Positions 16,701 through 55,792 of a stretch of 55,792 nucleotides of DNA are shown in pieces. Numbering within the stretch: the stretch's first letter is position 1; each line of letters starts with the position of its first letter. Made by a program: the position numbers and the translations under genes. The notes under the pieces are model-generated. The model was not told the origin of the DNA, searched no databases, and saw only the letters and a program-made list of their open reading frames with translations. The DNA comes from a virus (lineage: Duplodnaviria; Caudoviricetes). The stretch lies in the IMG/VR virus record IMGVR_UViG_3300045885_000606, positions 1 through 55,792 of that record; one strand, 5' to 3'.

Positions 16701-17606
16701 ATGCAGGCGCCCAACGATCCTGGAACAAGCAAGCTCCTCATTCATGAAGAACCGCTCCAAGTCTTGCCGAGCTTGGCAGTGGCGTTGGGCGACCTCAACG
16801 AAGCGATTGTCTTACAGCAGCTTCACTACTGGCTTAGGCGCAACGGGCATGAACGTGATGACAGAACGTGGATTTACAACACCTACGAGGACTGGCATAC
16901 CCAGTTTCCCTTCTGGTCCATTTCGACAATCAAACGCACCATCCTCTCCCTGCAGAAGAAAGATCTGGTGCTGACCGCAAATTACAACCACAGCGCCATG
17001 GATAAAACCAAGTGGTACGCCATTAACTATAAGCAACTCAATAACTTGATCACTCCAGAAGTGGGTGATCCCATCGATCGTGTCAACTTGACCCCATCGA
17101 CGGCTCACATTGACCCCATCGATGGCTCAGATTGCTCCCATCTCTTTTCAGAGAATAACTCCAGAGATCTAGAACACTCACTCACTACGTTCGTGAGTAT
17201 GGACGGTGATGATCGCGCAACGATCACATCGTCCCAACTAATAACCACTGTGCAGAGTAATGGACATATCGCGGTAAAGAAAACCCCCAGGAAAAAACCG
17301 GTCACGCCGCTCGCAGAGGATGATTGGCTCCGCGCTGTGCTCCTCGAATATAACGACGTCATTCCCTTTCAGGCGATGAACGATGCCACCTGGTGGATTG
17401 AAGTCTCCAGGCAACTCAAAACCTATTTCAACGCTGACTGGCTACGTGGGCAGTTCAGCGCCATGACCACCTATTTCATTGAACGTCCGCACAAGGAACC
17501 CTCAAAGAACTGGAAAGGTTTTGTCAGACGATGGCTTAATAACGGCAAGGAACATGACCGGAGGTATACCAGTGGGACGCAGCAGATACGACGATACCGA
17601 GACTGA
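16701..17606 (+). CDS. Phage replication initiator (winged-HTH, replisome-organiser type)
   Basis: LNEAIVLQQLHYW...WIYNTYEDW...FPFWSISTIKR...DKTKWYAINY; contains internal iteron-like repeats. Confidence 0.8.
   Translation: MQAPNDPGTSKLLIHEEPLQVLPSLAVALGDLNEAIVLQQLHYWLRRNGHERDDRTWIYNTYEDWHTQFPFWSISTIKRTILSLQKKDLVLTANYNHSAMDKTKWYAINYKQLNNLITPEVGDPIDRVNLTPSTAHIDPIDGSDCSHLFSENNSRDLEHSLTTFVSMDGDDRATITSSQLITTVQSNGHIAVKKTPRKKPVTPLAEDDWLRAVLLEYNDVIPFQAMNDATWWIEVSRQLKTYFNADWLRGQFSAMTTYFIERPHKEPSKNWKGFVRRWLNNGKEHDRRYTSGTQQIRRYRD
17066..17142. repeat. Iteron-like ~22 bp direct repeats (candidate replication origin)
   Basis: tgatcccatcgatcgtgtcaact / tgaccccatcgacggctcacat / tgaccccatcgatggctcagat / tgctcccatc, inside the initiator gene. 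Confidence 0.65.
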
Positions 17607-18108
17607 GGACGTCAAAGCCCCGAAGAAGCCCCCCTCCTGGCGCTGTACCCTGTGCCTGGATGCGGACCCGCAGATCCGCTACACGCACTTGATCGACCTC
17701 GCCATGGACCATACGTTCGAGGCGATCGAAGCCCATCTGTGGGACGCCTTCCGCGCTGGCACGGTGCTCCCTGAGAGCCGCATTCAGGGCTACGTCGCCG
17801 ACCGCGTGGCATGGGTGAAAGATCAGGTGCTCTCCTATAGCGGCATCCCGGATGAGGAGACGGGTGCTCCCATGCCGTGGCACGTTGCCAGAAGGAAGGT
17901 GCACGCCCAGTTCCGTGCGGCCCGTGGTGCCGCGCCACCCCCGCCACCGCCAGTCCCAGAGCCACCGCCTGCGCCAGCACCGCCGCCCACGCCGGAGCCG
18001 CAGACGGACATCCCCGAGCCAGCCTCCCTCGAGGACTGGCACAAGGCGCTCGATGAGATGGTCGGAGTCCTGGCAGACGACTATACCCCTGAAGAGGAGG
18101 ATGACTGA
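17572..18108 (+). CDS. Hypothetical protein (Pro-rich C-terminus), in the helicase-loader position
   Basis: Follows the initiator. The start is uncertain (GTG 17572 after GAGG). Confidence 0.5.
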   Translation: MGRSRYDDTETEDVKAPKKPPSWRCTLCLDADPQIRYTHLIDLAMDHTFEAIEAHLWDAFRAGTVLPESRIQGYVADRVAWVKDQVLSYSGIPDEETGAPMPWHVARRKVHAQFRAARGAAPPPPPPVPEPPPAPAPPPTPEPQTDIPEPASLEDWHKALDEMVGVLADDYTPEEEDD

Positions 18109-18344: not shown

Positions 18345-19409
18345 ATGGAAACGACCCTGGAAACGACTGACACCCGGAAGCGTGTCAGCACCCTGACGCC
18401 CTTTGAAACCACCCTGATGCATAGTCGGGAGAGTCTCCGCACCATCTTTGATGATCGCAACAAAGCCGATGCGCTCCTGGTAGAGATCGTCAACTGTGCC
18501 AGGAAGACGCCGGCGCTGATGCGCTGCACGCCAGAAAGCATCATCCACGCGGTCGTCCGCCTGGCCTCGCTGGACCTCAACCCGGCCATCCCGGCTGAAG
18601 CGTACCTCGTCCCCTACGGCACCGAGTGTACCCTTATCTACGGGTACGGTGGACTCCGGAAGCTGGTCCTGCGCTCGCCAGATGTGGTCGATGTCTTTGC
18701 CGAGACGGTGCACCAAAACGACGTCTTCCGGCAGGCAGAAACCCCGATCGTGCTGCCCTACCACCAGCTTCCACCGCCGCAAAACGATGGCACGTTTACC
18801 CCCAGGGGCCGTGCCGTGGGCTATTACGCTGCAGCCCTCCTGCGCTCGGGGAACTGGCGCGTCGTGGTGCTCTCCAAAGCGGAAGTCGATGGCCACAGAC
18901 AGCGCTACTCTGCAGCAGCACAGGGGAAATTCTGGGCCGATAACCGCCCTGACCTGGAAGGTCTCACCAACTTTGACAAGATGGCGATGAAGACCTGCCT
19001 GAGAGAGTTGTGCTCCCCACGGAAGCTCTCCATCTCGGCGGAAATTACCCAGGCCCTGGAAGGTGAAGAAGCCATCCTGAGACAGCCGGCCGCGGTGCAC
19101 CAGGGCTACGACCGGGAGACTGGCACCCGCACCCCGCCGCCCTTGAGTGCCCCCAGTGAGGACCTCCTGGCCGATCTGGTCTCCGACCTCGCCGGCGACC
19201 ATGCTACCCTCGAGTCGCACCTTGAGGAGGAGCGCCAGACCCCTGCGCCTCAGCGAGCTCAGAGAGCTGCGAAAGCCAGGGTGGCCCCCAGCGCTCCTTC
19301 GGCGACACCCCCAGCCCCCCCACAGAGGGCAGGGGGTGAGCCGCCCCTGCCGTTTGATCCCTCCGAATCCGCCCGGATGGATGAGGAACTGGCCTCCCAG
19401 AACGCCTGA
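18345..19409 (+). CDS. recT: RecT-family single-strand annealing protein
   Basis: LMRCTPESI...LNP...EAYLVPY...LIYGYGGL...FDKMAMKT. Confidence 0.88.
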   Translation: METTLETTDTRKRVSTLTPFETTLMHSRESLRTIFDDRNKADALLVEIVNCARKTPALMRCTPESIIHAVVRLASLDLNPAIPAEAYLVPYGTECTLIYGYGGLRKLVLRSPDVVDVFAETVHQNDVFRQAETPIVLPYHQLPPPQNDGTFTPRGRAVGYYAAALLRSGNWRVVVLSKAEVDGHRQRYSAAAQGKFWADNRPDLEGLTNFDKMAMKTCLRELCSPRKLSISAEITQALEGEEAILRQPAAVHQGYDRETGTRTPPPLSAPSEDLLADLVSDLAGDHATLESHLEEERQTPAPQRAQRAAKARVAPSAPSATPPAPPQRAGGEPPLPFDPSESARMDEELASQNA

Positions 19410-19490
19410 GTCTGGCAGTGACCGTGGGGCCACGCCTGTGCGGTCACTTCCTCCTTGCAAGAGAGGTGTGCTTATGTTACACAGAGAGAC

Positions 19491-19972
19491 AGAACAGCCG
19501 TTACAAGTGATTGCAACGTGTGAATCGAGCGCAGCCCCTTACCCAGAGGATCCCGGCAATGGCGAGCGCAGCCGGCTATCCAGAGGACCCCGAAGCACAG
19601 GAGCGCAGCCGTGTCATGGAGGACCACGGACAAGAGAGCGCAGCCGTTTGAAGGGAGGATCCCGCGGGAAATGAGCGCAGCCGCAAAGGGAGAGACCCCC
19701 GGAATCCTGGAGCGCAGCCGCTGAGAAGACAATCCCGACGTACCGAGCGCAGCCGGGATATACGAGGACCACGAAAGAGGATAGCGCAGCCGCAATGGTA
19801 GAGAAACCCCAATAGATACGAGCGCAGCCGAATGACAAGAGTATCCCGAGAGGAGAGGAGCGGAGCCGAAAGCCCCGAGAACCCCGATGTGACGGAGCGG
19901 AGCCGTATCGAATGAGCATCCCGTGAAAAGAGCGCAGCCGCTGGACGCGAGAATCCCGCTGTCCATGAGCGC
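19491..19972 (+). repeat. TIGR-like dual-repeat guide RNA array 1 (~13 units of ~37 nt)
   Basis: Edge repeat GAGCG(C/G)AGCC alternates with loop repeat GAGNAYC(C/A)C, separated by unique 7-10 nt (mostly 9 nt) spacers. Example: gagcgcagcc-gtttgaagg-gaggatccc-gcgggaaat. The first unit is degenerate. Confidence 0.9.
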
Positions 19973-19988
19973 CCAGAAGGAGCATCCT

Positions 19989-22130
19989 ATGCCCGTCCCA
20001 GACATTGCCCTGGTTCCCGAGGAGTACATCGACTTTGATCTGACCTTACGCCTGGATCGTGATCTCGCCATCGCGGCCGGGAACTTGACCCCCCTCCAGC
20101 AGCGCTTCCTGGTGGATATGTACTACCAGGTGCAGGAGTCACGCAAGTCTGCCGCCAACCAGCTCCGCTCTGCCAGGGAAGAACCCAACGCCTTTATCAC
20201 CATGCTGGCGGCGTATCTCATGAAGTTAGAGCGCACAATCGTCAGCGCCCTCAACAAGGCCACCGACCAGCGCCCGGTGACGGCGTGGGCGAAGCGGCAG
20301 CACGGGATTGGCCCCGTACTCACGGCGGGCTTTGCGGCGCACATCGACATCCATATCGCCAAAACGCCTAGTGCTATATGGCGCTATGCGGGACTCGACC
20401 CAACCGTCAAGTGGGCCAAGGGGCAAAAAAGACCATGGAATGCGGCCTTGAAGGTCTTGTCGTGGAAATTGGGTGATTGCTTCTGTCTTAAGCCTGATCA
20501 AACCGTAACAACCAGGCGTGGCTATATCCCCATCTGTGAGGTCGTTAGGGGAGATGAAGTTCTTACGCACCATGGGCGCTGGCAGCGAGTAACGGACGTT
20601 CTCGTGCGCGACTATGCTGGCCCACTCGTCCAACTACGGGCGTTTGGACGAGCAAATCAAGGGCCATGGGTGACGTATGGACATCCTGTCTATACCCGTC
20701 AGCGTCCAGTCATCTACTACAGCGAGGGAGAGAGGCAGCGCTGGAAACATGGAGGAAGAGTCCAAGAGCAGCGCTTTGTTCGCGCCGCACAGATGCGTGC
20801 ATTGTACGAAGAAGGCTTGTTACTGAAAGAGATTGCTACTCGCTTTGGCGTCAGCGAAGCCACAGTGTCACGAAACGTACGGTATCTCAATAATGCCTAC
20901 TCTTCTATGCCTGTAGGGTGGATCGACGCCGAAGACATCCAGCGTGGATGGGATATTTATAGCCCGACTATCCCTGCGACGGCGGCCCGTCTCATGCTAG
21001 ACTTCCGCAGTCTTCCCGACTTGCTCCCAGTAGGAGACCACCAGGTGCGCGCACGAGGGAATCGTGCTATTCCTGTTCCAGCCACGGTCGCTGTCACAGA
21101 GCAAGTTGCTCGTCTCATTGGTCTCTATCTGGCAGAAGGGCATGCGGCGTCACATCAGGGACAACTTGGCTGGTCATTCCATCTCAACGAGCGGAGGTAT
21201 CAGGAGGAGGTCAGACAGACTATCGCTGAGGTTTTTGGACTTAACAGCAGTCTCTATGAGTATGTCGCTGGTCACTCTGCCCAGGTCATCGTGGCTTCAA
21301 AGCCACTCGTTATGCTGTTTGCCCACCTCTTTGGCTCGCATGCTCACACCAAACACCTGCCACCCTCCTGGCTCGAAACACTTGGAGACGCTGAGGCCCG
21401 AGCGCTTCTTCGTGGGCTCTATGATGGCGATGGGCATGATTATCACGGCGACAAACCTGGAGAAGTCCTTACAACGGTCTCGAAGACTCTCGCCTATCAG
21501 GTGCATGATCTCGTGAGGCGTCTTGGCATGCTTGCGTCTATCAATGTGGACAAGGAGGTCTATAAAGTCCGCATACAAGGACGAGAGATTACCGCTGAAT
21601 GGACGCCTACCGGCACCTGGCATAGCGTGAAGTCCATCCCAGAAACCTTCTATGCCGGCCCAGTCTACAATCTCGAAGTGGCTAACGACGAAAGTTATGT
21701 CGCAGAAGGGATTGCTGTCCATAACTGTAAGTTCCACAACCACGAGAAGTGCTTTTACGGGCACATCTATGCCGAGCGCAAGCAACTCGAAGTGATGCGC
21801 AACGCCCGGGGAGATTTTGCCGCGTTGGCGAAAGAGACGCTCGAAGTCCGCAAGATCCAGGATAAAGAGACCCGCCTGGTCTACGAGTCCGGGAAGCTCC
21901 CGGCCGGGCGCCTGGAGCTGCGGGCCCGCCGTGTGGCCGTAAAGCTCTTTCTCGCCCACTGGTTCGAGGTCGACTTTACGCATACCTTTGGCGTGCGCCC
22001 GGAGCTGTCGTATATTCTGATGCACGATCCAGAGACGCATACCCACTACATCCCACCGCCCCTGTGGGATCCGCCCGTAGACGTGAAGGCGCCAGCACCT
22101 AAAGCCGAAGACAGTGAGCATCCCGCGTAA
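19989..22130 (+). CDS. tasA: TIGR-associated (TasA-like) IS110/Nop-domain protein, interrupted by an intein
   Basis: ATG 19989 after AGAAGGAG. Coiled coil LVDMYYQVQESRKSAANQLR; GIGPVLTAGFAAHIDI...PSAIWRYAGLDP (IS110 Transposase_20/Nop-like); C-extein FYGHIYAERK...RARRVAVKLFLAHW. About 299 aa spliced, no RuvC or HNH seen, flanked by dual-repeat arrays. Confidence 0.82.
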   Translation: MPVPDIALVPEEYIDFDLTLRLDRDLAIAAGNLTPLQQRFLVDMYYQVQESRKSAANQLRSAREEPNAFITMLAAYLMKLERTIVSALNKATDQRPVTAWAKRQHGIGPVLTAGFAAHIDIHIAKTPSAIWRYAGLDPTVKWAKGQKRPWNAALKVLSWKLGDCFCLKPDQTVTTRRGYIPICEVVRGDEVLTHHGRWQRVTDVLVRDYAGPLVQLRAFGRANQGPWVTYGHPVYTRQRPVIYYSEGERQRWKHGGRVQEQRFVRAAQMRALYEEGLLLKEIATRFGVSEATVSRNVRYLNNAYSSMPVGWIDAEDIQRGWDIYSPTIPATAARLMLDFRSLPDLLPVGDHQVRARGNRAIPVPATVAVTEQVARLIGLYLAEGHAASHQGQLGWSFHLNERRYQEEVRQTIAEVFGLNSSLYEYVAGHSAQVIVASKPLVMLFAHLFGSHAHTKHLPPSWLETLGDAEARALLRGLYDGDGHDYHGDKPGEVLTTVSKTLAYQVHDLVRRLGMLASINVDKEVYKVRIQGREITAEWTPTGTWHSVKSIPETFYAGPVYNLEVANDESYVAEGIAVHNCKFHNHEKCFYGHIYAERKQLEVMRNARGDFAALAKETLEVRKIQDKETRLVYESGKLPAGRLELRARRVAVKLFLAHWFEVDFTHTFGVRPELSYILMHDPETHTHYIPPPLWDPPVDVKAPAPKAEDSEHPA
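20484..21725 (+). mobile_element. Intein (414 aa) with HTH insertion and LAGLIDADG homing endonuclease
   Basis: Begins CLKPDQTVTT, block B VTYGHPVY, ends VYNLEVANDESYVAEGIAVHN|C. LAGLIDADG blocks LIGLYLAEGH and LLRGLYDGDG; HTH LKEIATRFGVSEATVSR. Confidence 0.93.
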
Positions 22131-22472
22131 AGAGAGCGCAGCCGTCATCGCTGATCAACACGTCAAAAGTGAGCGTAGCCGAGTCTGGTGAGCATCACGT
22201 AAAACATGAGCGGAGCCGTATAGGAAGATCACCACGTCAAAGGGGAGCGTAGCCGAGAGCCCAGAGAGTCCAGTTAAACCTGAGCGCAGCCGTAGATAAG
22301 AAGAACCCCGAAGCACAGGAGCGCAGCCGCTGTGTGCTGAGAACCCCGCATGAGAGGAGCGTCAGCCGCTCTCCACGAGCATCCCGTTGGAAGAGAGCGC
22401 AGCCGAAATAGACGAGTATCCCAAAGAGATCGAGCGCAGCCGTCAGGCTGGAGCACCCCGTAACGCCGAAGC
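22101..22472 (+). repeat. TIGR-like dual-repeat guide RNA array 2 (~10 units)
   Basis: Same edge/loop repeats and ~37 nt period. Example: gagcgtagcc-gagtctggt-gagcatcac-gtaaaacat. The first unit overlaps the last codons of the tas gene. Confidence 0.9.
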
Positions 22473-22486
22473 GACGAGGGCACCAG

Positions 22487-22510
22487 GGCGTCACCCTCGA
22501 AGGTGACGCC
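22487..22510. terminator. Hairpin closing the TIGR locus, between convergent units
   Basis: GGCGTCACC-ctcgaa-GGTGACGCC perfect 9 bp stem; no U tract. Confidence 0.5.
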
Positions 22511-22540
22511 GGTCCCACGTCCTGGCAGTGTGCCCTTGAC

Positions 22541-22984
22541 TTAGAGCCTGCCAGACTTTGCAGGAGAGATGCCCCCATGGCGTCCTGCCGGCACGCGCCC
22601 TCCCCTGAGCGCCTGATGCCCTGGCAGAGGGAGACTGAGGTTCGTGAGCGGGCCCCGCGCTTGCACGTCATTAGCAAGCTGCCTGAGGCCTGCGGCCATA
22701 CTCAGGGCTTGAGCCTCAGAGCAGGGCTGTCCCAGGGGCATTCCCTCCTCGGAGCCAAGATAGACAATAATTTCCACACTGACACCCAAAAGGGAGGCAA
22801 GCGTCAGGGCCTTGCCCAGTGAGGGGGAGTTTTCCCCAGACTCAATTTTGGCAATGTTCGTGTGGTCCGCATATCCCGCGGCCAGACCAAGCGGCCGCTG
22901 CGAGAGACCGTGTAATTCCCGCAGACGCTTGAGACCGCGACCAAAATTCTGCCGGATCACGTCGTCTGCATAGAGGGCTAACAT
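22541..22984 (-). CDS. XRE-family HTH repressor (CI-like)
   Basis: FGRGLKRLRELHGLSQRPL...IAKIESGENSPSL. Confidence 0.85.
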   Translation of the reverse strand: MLALYADDVIRQNFGRGLKRLRELHGLSQRPLGLAAGYADHTNIAKIESGENSPSLGKALTLASLLGVSVEIIVYLGSEEGMPLGQPCSEAQALSMAAGLRQLANDVQARGPLTNLSLPLPGHQALRGGRVPAGRHGGISPAKSGRL

Positions 22985-23149
22985 ACCGCATCTCCTTCGT
23001 CAAAGACCATAGGCCCGCACCGATGTGCTATCACCACACATTTTATCGAAGACGCCTGGCAAGTGAAAGCAAAAACTTGTGCTTGATCCACACACCCATG
23101 TGCGCTATGTTATGGGTACAAAATCATCGCACAGGGAGAGGACAGGGCA

Positions 23150-54633: not shown

Positions 54634-55792
54634 TTACCACTGGAGGAACTCCGTGGGATAGGTGAGCGGTTGAGTGCCGTAGGCCAGGAGGAGATCGGAG
54701 AGCACAGTACGGTCCCTATCCTCCGGATCCGGCGTGTGGTCAAGCCCAGCCTGGGCCCACGGGAAGGCCGGCGCCGCGTGGAGAGGGACGCCACGTTTGA
54801 CCACGTAGTTTTCCGAGCGCGACATGAGCGCAATACCGAAGGCAAAGAGGAGATCATCGTGGCCAGCCAGGGCTTCGAGCTTCCCCGAATCCGATTCCCC
54901 AAAGGTCCGGAGCTGGCGCACCAGAGCCCGGGAGTGGAGAGCCACACGCTTTTCTAAGATCACTTCCTGAATGCGGGCCAGCATCCGTGGGCGGGTGCGC
55001 ACATTGGTATTATGGCCGACCAGGCCATCAGCAATGAGCGTATGGTCTGGATCAGTCGTCAGACCAATCACCTCGCCATCTGGCAGAGGGATGATGCTGT
55101 CGACTGGCATACGCTCAAACGACCTGAGGGTCAAGTATCCAGCCTCGGCAAACGCCGCAAAGCGCCTGAGAAGCCGTGTCGGACGGAGTGAACCGAGTGC
55201 GCGCAGCACTTCCACCACACGCAGCACGCCGGTGGTCTGTATGGTCTGCTCCTGCGGACGGTCTTTATGCCGCATCCACTTGAAGATGGCGTCAAAGCCA
55301 CATTTCCCCCAGAGATCGGCAATCTCATCGGCGAGGAGTCCTTCGACCTGCGTTATAAGCAGTTGATAGCCGCCACGATCCCCGCCCCTGGAGAGATGGC
55401 CTTCACCATCAAGAAACGCAGAGAGTCTTCCGGCTTCATAGGTGCGCAGGCTCTCCCACATCGGCAGATACCTGAGCAGATCACCTTGCCTGAGCCGTGA
55501 GGCTTCCATCCACTGCCATCCCACATCTTTGCGGCTCTGCCTGAACACCAAAAAAGGATGGTTGGTACTCACACAGGTCGTCTCGCCATTGGCAAGCACC
55601 ACCTTGCACCTCGGGGCAGGAAAGACCTGACGGCTCTTAATCGTCTGTATCCGTACATGGATCGCACTGCCTTTTCCCCCTGTGACGCGCTCCTGGCAGC
55701 CCAGTATCTGGTCACCAACCTCAAGCGTATGCGCCTCCGTCCAGCGTAAATCTGACGTAAGGATGCGGGACGAGGGGTCAACACATTCCCAT
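54634..55792 (-). CDS. terL: Terminase large subunit, 3' part (intein plus C-terminal nuclease portion)
   Basis: After the intein: TNVRTRP...QLRTF...GHDDLLFAFGIAL (terminase nuclease HDD motif). Confidence 0.9.
   Translation of the reverse strand, partial: WECVDPSSRILTSDLRWTEAHTLEVGDQILGCQERVTGGKGSAIHVRIQTIKSRQVFPAPRCKVVLANGETTCVSTNHPFLVFRQSRKDVGWQWMEASRLRQGDLLRYLPMWESLRTYEAGRLSAFLDGEGHLSRGGDRGGYQLLITQVEGLLADEIADLWGKCGFDAIFKWMRHKDRPQEQTIQTTGVLRVVEVLRALGSLRPTRLLRRFAAFAEAGYLTLRSFERMPVDSIIPLPDGEVIGLTTDPDHTLIADGLVGHNTNVRTRPRMLARIQEVILEKRVALHSRALVRQLRTFGESDSGKLEALAGHDDLLFAFGIALMSRSENYVVKRGVPLHAAPAFPWAQAGLDHTPDPEDRDRTVLSDLLLAYGTQPLTYPTEFLQW
55009..55785 (-). mobile_element. Intein (259 aa) in the terminase nuclease domain
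   Basis: GWE|CVDPSSRILT...VSTNHPFLV...LSAFLDGEGHL...HTLIADGLVGHN|T. Confidence 0.92.

Follow-up and report, generated by a model that had tools for sequence, protein, structure and literature searches.

A LAGLIDADG intein in the tasA gene of a soil phage, probably relocated from a neighbouring insertion site

The DNA analysed here (the window) is the whole of IMG/VR virus record IMGVR_UViG_3300045885_000606, a phage sequence of 55,792 nt (55.8 kb) rated 100% complete. Its tasA gene, which lies between two TIGR arrays on the plus strand, is interrupted in frame by 414 codons. We conclude that the gene probably encodes a 713-aa TasA precursor in which a canonical class-1 intein, equipped with a LAGLIDADG endonuclease and a helix-turn-helix (HTH) module, occupies a C-terminal helix of the Nop domain, and that the intein was probably relocated there from a nearby site (site B), where its relatives in other Tas proteins reside. 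A reading made earlier from the sequence only had proposed an intein at 20484-21725; each element it listed (Cys1, the terminal His-Asn, the +1 Cys, the LAGLIDADG motifs, and the HTH) was found where that reading had put it, and the evidence from profiles, alignments, fold, and catalytic residues agrees with the split of the Tas Nop domain that it proposed at WKLGDCF-CKFHN (a hyphen within a one-letter motif marks an intein junction throughout).

The insert has the properties of a class-1 intein

The insert (CLKPDQ...IAVHN) corresponds to residues 188-601 of the open frame that begins at 19923, or nt 20484-21725, exactly 414 codons, with junction DNA TTC-TGT at 20483/20484 and CAT AAC-TGT at 21725/21726. 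It is in frame, begins with Cys1, contains the TxxH motif, ends with His-Asn in front of a +1 Cys, and combines a split HINT fold with two LAGLIDADG motifs, the features by which a class-1 intein is defined. LAGLIDADG_3 of Pfam matched the insert in two stretches (E 1e-13). In an NCBIfam scan of the open reading frame (ORF), the intein C-terminal region model TIGR01443 scored 27.7 bits against a cut-off of 15.6, and the insert was also matched to the endonuclease parts of several intein-containing proteins. The Hint_2, Intein_splicing, and intein N-terminal models of Pfam and NCBIfam scored below threshold on the insert. Approximately 15 HTH families matched intein residues 100-139, all of them sub-threshold (the best, HTH_23, had 23.2 bits, its cut-off being 24.6).

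An AlphaFold2 model of the 414 residues, computed with a 33-sequence alignment, had a mean predicted local distance difference test score (pLDDT) of 93.1 and a predicted template-modelling score (pTM) of 0.86. The model has beta-rich ends, helices at residues 92-109, 114-121, and 125-132, and an alpha/beta core at approximately 200-365. When it was compared with the PDB using Foldseek, the top matches were intein homing endonucleases, TliVMA (7qsu, 2.5e-18) and PI-PkoII (2cw7, 3.3e-18), with PhoVMA, PI-SceI, and PI-PfuI among the further matches.

Conservation was assessed in an alignment of 33 rows, comprising the window intein and 32 relatives. C1, H67, H413, and N414 are invariant (33/33), and T64 is present in 32 of the 33 rows. 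The acidic residue of the first LAGLIDADG motif (position 218) is Glu in 29 rows and Asp in four, while that of the second (position 316) is Asp in 32 of the 33. The HTH region (intein residues 80-140) accounts for 61 columns, of which at least 49 are filled in 23 of the 32 relatives and 15 or fewer in the other nine; eight of these nine constitute a shorter group of 356-364 aa. The HTH module appears, on this alignment, to belong to the intein lineage and not to be peculiar to the window. Sequence and model together support the conclusion that the insert is a class-1 intein composed of HINT and a two-motif LAGLIDADG endonuclease, which would be expected to splice and to home. A 20-nt direct repeat of 80% identity was also observed within the intein (21126-21145 and 21696-21715); it pairs YLAEGHA of LAGLIDADG motif 1 with YVAEGIA of block G, probably by chance.

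The interrupted protein is a TasA

The full ORF matched NF052498 of NCBIfam, "TIGR-Tas system RNA-guided endonuclease", with 147.6 bits (cut-off 100). On this profile of 215 positions, the N-extein covers 2-146 and the C-extein 151-213, the only break falling between 146 and 151. A search with the N-extein yielded 760 homologous proteins of 102-328 aa, and when the best 15 were aligned to the ORF, all 15 lacked precisely the 414 residues and the exteins ran on contiguously, as the sequence-only reading had anticipated. Intein-free homologues read through the junction as ...W(K/R)xGxxF-(M/V/K)K... No HNH, RuvC, or other nuclease family was detected in the exteins with Pfam and NCBIfam at E-values up to 1, a profile result and not a structural proof, and only about 38 residues precede the start of the NF052498 profile. 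Because no nuclease domain was detected, the host protein is classified from its sequence as a solo-Nop TasA, following the nomenclature of Faure et al. 2025 (PMC12045711).

The closest homologue of the window protein, intein-free P0001, was aligned by phmmer with solved structures, TaTasR (9mty, E 9.3e-10) and TasH chains (E 1.2e-9). In the alignment with TaTasR, the insertion point in the window falls between F244 and I245, at the end of the helix after the wedge; the loop termed insertion 1 (Q247-T249) in the Methods section of the TIGRFinder preprint (10.64898/2026.09.09.750476) lies two to three residues further on. This position places the intein in the guide-binding C-terminal part of the Nop domain, and it is reasonable to infer that the precursor is inactive. 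In a structural model of the precursor, pLDDT falls below 50 at residues 152-163, just before the N-junction. Treating this dip as a sign of misfolding was considered and dropped, as the site-B rows of the alignment place WKxGxSF after the intein and the dip may be an alignment effect.

The plus strand contains a single long open frame at 19923-22130, of 735 aa when counted from its GTG codon. This GTG falls within the last unit of the upstream TIGR array, while the ATG at 19989 follows the Shine-Dalgarno sequence AAGGAG (19977-19982) at a distance of 7 nt and gives the MPVPD start that is common to the public gene call (P0121, 713 aa) and to P0001. On the strength of this spacing and these two starts, ATG 19989 is most likely the true start of tasA. 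The precursor (ORF 19989-22130) would then have 165 + 414 + 134 = 713 aa and its spliced product 299 aa, so that the lengths of 299 and 414 aa given in the sequence-only reading match the joined exteins and the insert.

Related inteins in other Tas proteins occupy a different site

When the 414 residues were searched with HMMER against the full set of 1.84 billion representatives, 6,824 matches reached E<=0.001, and 62 reached E<=1e-30. Tas hosts among the best 150 intein relatives were picked by BLAST with the window exteins; there are 29 of them, and they include all 14 best relatives. The next-nearest relatives, outside Tas, are inteins in glycosyltransferases, phage portal proteins, and a DNA methylase. 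We define site B as ...LK(T/V)L-C...HN-C(W/F/A)KxGxSF and site A, that of the window, as GDCF-CKF. Every readable junction in the 29 Tas proteins is at site B (25/25 N-junctions and 27/27 C-junctions). The same site was found in six more clusters through a word-index search and in P0148 and P0145, for a total of 37 site-B clusters. Seven intein-bearing proteins were scanned with NF052498, and the match of the N-extein stops at profile position 139 in six of them, all with site B, versus 146 in the window. Among the best 80 IMG/VR loci matched by an intein alignment, four (L011-L014) are Tas genes, and all four have site B. One of the site-B hosts, P0199, is annotated by JGI as "LAGLIDADG-like domain/Transposase IS116/IS110/IS902 family".

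No nuclease domain was detected by Pfam in six longer site-B hosts, which weakly suggests that site-B hosts may be TasA-like. Tandem Repeats Finder revealed no 36-nt arrays at L011 and L012, so the match to NF052498 is the sole link between site-B hosts and arrays. The contig encoding P0196, whose intein is considered below, was not recovered: metagenome contigs gave an unrelated locus (L002, 26% identity) and viral contigs gave none. A tblastn search of INPHARED phages returned five records with weak matches to the intein only (best 24.7% identity) and none to Tas, and no close relatives were found in IMG/VR with the N-extein.

Two further Tas proteins carry inteins elsewhere. In P0177, the intein is located just before the GIGPV helix-hairpin-helix motif (profile position ~73); in P0127, it lies in VKxF(F/L)-SH (VKxFF-SHYW, profile position ~206), ends with Asn, and is followed by a +1 Ser. 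Both fall outside the best 150 relatives of the window intein, and judging from their sequences they look unrelated to it. The sequence-only reading knew of no Tas intein described before. For the literature (see below) this stands; for the databases, with 37 site-B clusters and these two unrelated inteins, it does not.

The intein appears to have moved from site B to site A

Site A is 8 residues (24 nt) downstream of site B, and the window is the only site-A case among 40 intein-bearing Tas clusters. A maximum-likelihood tree was built from 30 Tas and 3 non-Tas inteins. In this tree, whose bootstrap had not fully settled, the window intein groups with that of P0196 (site B, 57% identity over 407 columns) with a support of 100/100, and the pair is nested in an eight-member clade (support 97/99), the other seven members of which are all at site B. 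A quick tree agrees with this topology, and in these sequence trees a Tas-specific intein clade is evident.

At site B, the +1 residue is Cys in 107 of 119 intein-free homologues. At site A, it is never Cys in the same 119 (V in 63, M in 46, and K, L, T, or A in the rest), and the +1 Cys of the window is therefore an intein-associated substitution and not a conserved extein nucleophile. In an extein tree, the window is sister to intein-free P0001 (support 97), and their six-member clade (support 99) is completed by P0196 and three other proteins that lack the intein. At the usual position of the site-B Cys, the intein-free proteins in this clade carry Q, R, A, or R. The simplest reading of these data is that an intein of the site-B lineage was re-inserted 24 nt downstream, with its own Cys codon, in a TasA subclade devoid of the usual nucleophile. 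On these alignments, the sequence-only reading needs correcting in two respects: the site in the window differs from that of all its relatives, and the extein residue at +1 is not conserved as Cys.

Distribution, composition, and expression

The extein tree used to follow mobility has 86 rows, 27 of which bear inteins; the intein-free rows are the best N-extein matches (59 of the first 60, truncated P0006 being dropped), a sample biased toward kin of the window. Parsimony requires 16 changes in the presence of the intein on this tree, and well-supported branches force at least five. With shuffled intein labels the mean was 23.3 changes, and none of 500 shuffles was as low as 16. This scatter is compatible with an intein that was repeatedly gained and lost through homing. 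The suggestion of the sequence-only reading that tas genes form a pool for homing is thus supported by the 37 other Tas clusters that carry related inteins and by the dispersal of these inteins across the extein tree.

The GC content at third codon positions (GC3) is 0.53 in the intein versus 0.76 and 0.75 in the exteins. At site-B loci L011-L014 (host GC 36-67%), the values for intein versus exteins are 0.45 versus 0.68/0.73, 0.81 versus 0.92/0.83, 0.48 versus 0.82/0.71, and 0.29 versus 0.46/0.33. Lower GC3 is a consistent signature that marks the intein lineage as compositionally distinct across hosts.

All 24 listed sequencing runs with the stretch are labelled soil metagenome, and 18 of them are DNA runs containing at least 94% of sampled words. 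Both junctions are spanned, with 0 differences, by contigs of two DNA runs other than those flagged as the source; the junctions are therefore not an assembly artefact. The intein-less joint was not found in contigs of four runs, and contigs cannot show absence. Two metatranscriptome libraries yielded contigs identical to parts of the locus, namely 19310-19840 (upstream array), 20431-20581 (N-junction), the intein interior, and 21751-21901 (C-extein). The N-junction is unspliced in an RNA-library contig, which is what an intein, but not an intron, would give. Libraries of this kind can contain DNA, and as a sign of expression these contigs are only a hint.

Proposed pathway and alternative explanations

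According to the reading that we favour, after translation Cys166 would attack the Phe165-Cys166 bond, the N-extein would be passed to Cys580, Asn579 would cyclise, and a peptide bond would join the exteins. The released 299-aa TasA (...WKLGDCF-CKFHNH..., the hyphen here marking the ligated bond) could bind 36-nt guides from the two flanking TIGR arrays, while the freed 414-aa endonuclease could cut intein-less tasA alleles and so drive copying of the intein. The intein itself would have come from the lineage usual at LK(T/V)L-CWK, moving 8 codons downstream and bringing its own +1 Cys. Several points count against this scheme. Site A is without precedent, the +1 Cys is non-native, and the -1 residue is Phe. 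The block-F position, His in 23 of 33 rows, is Glu in the window, as it also is in five of the 32 relatives. Neither an intein-less allele of this phage nor a second site-A allele was found, which leaves recent mobility unsupported; the GC3 step was likewise rejected as proof of recent acquisition, since all four site-B loci deviate in the same direction and the offset does not date the insertion. Finally, the RNA-library contigs cover the gene only partly and may derive from DNA.

Some of these points, namely a site unique among the 40 intein-bearing clusters, the non-native Cys, and the Glu in place of the block-F His, together with the pLDDT below 50 at residues 152-163, would suit a splicing-dead relic, with tasA trapped as a 713-aa precursor and effectively inactivated and its arrays orphaned. 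We consider such a relic unlikely. The 2,139-nt frame stays open, all splicing and endonuclease catalytic residues are intact and match the clade consensus, both arrays keep regular repeats, and an identical sequence recurs in the 18 DNA runs (at the word coverage given above); as for the low pLDDT, it may stem from the placement of WKxGxSF after the intein in the site-B rows. The domain could, conversely, have been retained and domesticated, giving the nuclease-less TasA a LAGLIDADG nuclease, as in the earlier idea that the unspliced precursor is a guide-binding protein fused to a nuclease. TasA indeed has no nuclease of its own, and both LAGLIDADG acidic residues are intact. Such a fusion would, however, need no Cys1, TxxH, His-Asn, or +1 Cys, and yet C1, H67, H413, and N414 are kept in 33/33 rows and T64 in 32/33; a conserved helix, uninterrupted in the 119 intein-free homologues, is broken by the insert; and the nine relatives with no more than 15 of the 61 HTH columns filled keep their splice blocks, as expected of a mobile intein. 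We regard this possibility as extremely improbable.

Inteins with Cys1 and Cys+1 can be redox-trapped. A cluster of Cys(-2), Cys1, and Cys+1 (Cys164, Cys166, and Cys580) is read directly from the sequence of the precursor, and tasA is located between recT and a cI-like HTH repressor. One could therefore imagine that the relocated intein has been co-opted by the phage as a switch, the precursor staying inert until redox conditions, temperature, or DNA binding by the HTH/endonuclease part permit splicing. Passages of the TIGRFinder preprint (10.64898/2026.09.09.750476) report TasA as an RNA-guided transcriptional repressor; a switch of this kind would time RNA-guided repression or interference in the lysis-lysogeny decision and would amount to a natural conditional regulator of an RNA-guided system. 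We find this quite improbable: Cys(-2) is also present in intein-free P0001 and so is not intein-specific, and the way in which the intein is dispersed across the extein tree is in keeping with a selfish element. Canonical splicing of a relocated intein is thus the reading that we retain.

Comparison with known systems

The site-B Tas inteins (P0196, P0199, P0148, and L011-L014) belong to the same clade as that of the window, share the blocks VYNLEV..D.SY....VHN-C and mostly the HTH module, and reside in hosts that match NF052498 above the cut-off. They differ in lying between the L and the conserved Cys of LK(T/V)L-CWKxGxSF, whereas the window intein follows WKLGDCF, where V or M is native at +1. 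TliVMA/PhoVMA (7qsu, 7qst, 7qss), PI-PkoII (2cw7), PI-SceI (1vde), and PI-PfuI (1dq3) have the same combination of HINT and a two-motif LAGLIDADG endonuclease (Foldseek E 2.5e-18 to 4.5e-10, template-modelling score 0.49-0.64 normalised to the query), and PI-PkoII is matched by phmmer over the endonuclease domain (2.5e-8). These solved proteins are, however, only 10-15% identical to the window intein, their hosts are an ATPase or a polymerase and not an RNA-guided Nop protein, and the window intein differs from them by its three-helix HTH module after block B.

TasA as Faure et al. 2025 describe it (PMC12045711) is, like the window protein, a nuclease-less, phage-borne Nop protein with arrays on both sides, these arrays having dual repeats, ~9-nt spacers, and 5-15 units. 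An intein does not figure in the main text of that paper, whereas 414 residues interrupt the C-terminal Nop domain in the window. TaTasR (9mty) and SpTasH (21kl and others) share an alignable Nop core with the window host, Cys237 of TaTasR being the counterpart of the site-B +1 residue, but contain RuvC or HNH domains and no intein.

According to passages of Goodwin, Butler and Poulter 2006 (PMC1635734), ectopic movement of inteins should be very rare, as an ectopic cut offers no flanking homology for repair, and such movement is inferred there from well-supported groupings of non-allelic inteins. The argument made here is the same. The cases in those passages, however, concern different genes without flanking similarity, while the two sites compared here lie within one gene family at a distance of 24 nt, and the sister intein, in P0196, is found in the same six-member extein subclade.

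In Faure et al. 2025 (PMC12045711), the main text contains neither "intein" nor "LAGLIDADG", and "homing" occurs only in the title of a reference. The main text of the TIGRFinder preprint (10.64898/2026.09.09.750476) also lacks "intein", and Nop "insertions" are catalogued there without inteins being named. Among the matches listed for literature naming both intein and IS110, no title concerned a natural intein in a Nop or IS110 protein. Two reviews of gene editing or gene therapy name both TIGR-Tas and intein (PMC13674456 and PMC12892848), and the TIGR-Tas passages of the former concern kinship with IS110. No publication describing Tas inteins was found, supplements and subscription-only papers lying outside the scope of the search. 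On this basis, we rate Tas inteins as undescribed in print and yet plainly present in databases.

Inteins usually reside in replication, repair, and packaging genes, and RNA-guided effectors are not known as customary hosts. A Tas-specific clade and two unrelated inteins point to phage tasA as an exchanging gene pool large and conserved enough for homing, which informs on the abundance and importance of TIGR-Tas in phages. The relocation is an unusually clean case, with sister inteins 24 nt apart in sister genes and a derived site that has no native nucleophile, and it bears directly on a long-standing question, namely the way in which inteins come to occupy new sites. In practical terms, a natural, compact, splicing-dependent TasA and orthogonal Tas-adapted inteins would be candidate switches for TIGR-Tas tools. 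The known workings of inteins and Tas proteins are unchanged; the element is of a canonical type, found in a host of a new type. For intein specialists, the changed site and a Tas-specific clade would be noteworthy, and for TIGR-Tas specialists a useful curiosity.

The tasA locus and its TIGR arrays

Features of the locus are collected in Table 1.

Table 1. Positions of tasA, intein, and array features in the window
Feature	Coordinates	Strand	Basis
Upstream dual-repeat TIGR array, 12 units of 35-38 nt	19527..19972	+	closed by partial edge repeat
Shine-Dalgarno and ATG of tasA	19977..19991	+	AAGGAG 19977-19982, ATG 19989-19991; homologue starts
N-extein, 165 aa (coiled-coil region, GIGPV helix-hairpin-helix motif, KGQKRPWN...LKVLSWKLGDCF)	19989..20483	+	NF052498 TIGR_Tas_endo, profile 2-146, E 1.1e-34, 120.3 bits, cut-off 100
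Intein, 414 aa, class-1 type	20484..21725	+	Cys1, Thr64-x-x-His67, His413-Asn414
HTH module, intein residues 92-132, between block B and endonuclease domain	20757..20879	+	sub-threshold HTH matches; model helices
LAGLIDADG motif 1 (VARLIGLYLAEGH), acidic Glu218	21105..21143	+	Pfam match; 33-row alignment
LAGLIDADG motif 2 (RALLRGLYDGDG), acidic Asp316	21399..21434	+	Pfam match; 33-row alignment
Intein blocks F and G (YAGPVYNLEVANDESYVAEGIAVHN)	21645..21725	+	TIGR01443, 37 bits on 21660-21728; conservation
+1 Cys codon TGT	21726..21728	+	junction DNA; homologue alignment
C-extein, 134 aa and stop codon	21726..22130	+	NF052498, profile 151-213, E 1.6e-8; homologue alignment
Downstream dual-repeat TIGR array, ~10 units of 35-38 nt	22097..22468	+	repeat analysis

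An array unit consists of an 11-nt edge repeat (GAGCGCAGCCG), spacer A of ~8 nt, a 10-nt loop repeat (GAGnAnCCCG), and spacer B of ~8 nt. The 12 units of the upstream array occupy 19527-19966. The downstream array opens with a unit whose edge repeat is degenerate and which overlaps tasA at its 3' end. TIGR arrays are defined by Faure et al. 2025 (PMC12045711) by two alternating repeats of 8-12 nt and spacers of roughly 9 nt, and both arrays flanking tasA fit this dual-repeat layout. A half-unit is 93% identical over 29 nt between the two arrays (19583-19611 versus 22301-22329); it runs from the last part of a loop repeat through spacer B (AAGCACAG) to the following edge repeat, and hints at duplication or recombination between the arrays.

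Self-targeting was searched for with 22 parsed tigRNA units, each represented by spacer A and the reverse complement of spacer B in either order, with a gap of 0-4 and no more than two mismatches. Eight matches were obtained outside the arrays, compared with 0-8 in 20 shuffled-spacer controls, which gives no sign of self-targeting. Rfam gave 0 matches in 19000-23000 at E-values up to 0.1. Promoter-like sites (2 versus 1.3 +/- 1.2 in shuffles) and terminator-like sites (7 versus 2.6 +/- 1.6 in shuffles, none at a plus-strand array end) were not used.

Phage context and a second probable intein

The neighbours of tasA are the RecT gene (18345-19409) and the HTH repressor gene (22541-22984, minus strand). 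The phage also encodes a DnaD-like initiator, the RecT and cI-like repressor already mentioned, a tail fibre, and a portal; it is a temperate-looking soil phage.

The last 126 nt of the record (55667-55792) are identical to nt 10-135. A minus-strand frame at 3-1544 matches the terminase large subunit (phrog_2, E 2.4e-13) and runs off the left end, and the frame continues at the right end (54634-55791, minus strand). From these sequences, the "linear" record is taken to be terminally redundant or circularly permuted, with the terminase gene spanning its ends. The terminase frame contains an insert with the junctions ...PVLYGWE-CVDPSS... and ...LVGHN-TNVRTRP. LAGLIDADG_3 matched this insert below threshold (18.4 bits, 55267-55440), and a radical-SAM model that contains an intein gave a weak hit (E 4.4e-5). 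The terminase large subunit probably holds a second intein. Upstream of recT, an ORF at 17479-18108 on the plus strand contains a long Pro-rich tract (PPPPPPVPEPPPAPAPPPTPEP).

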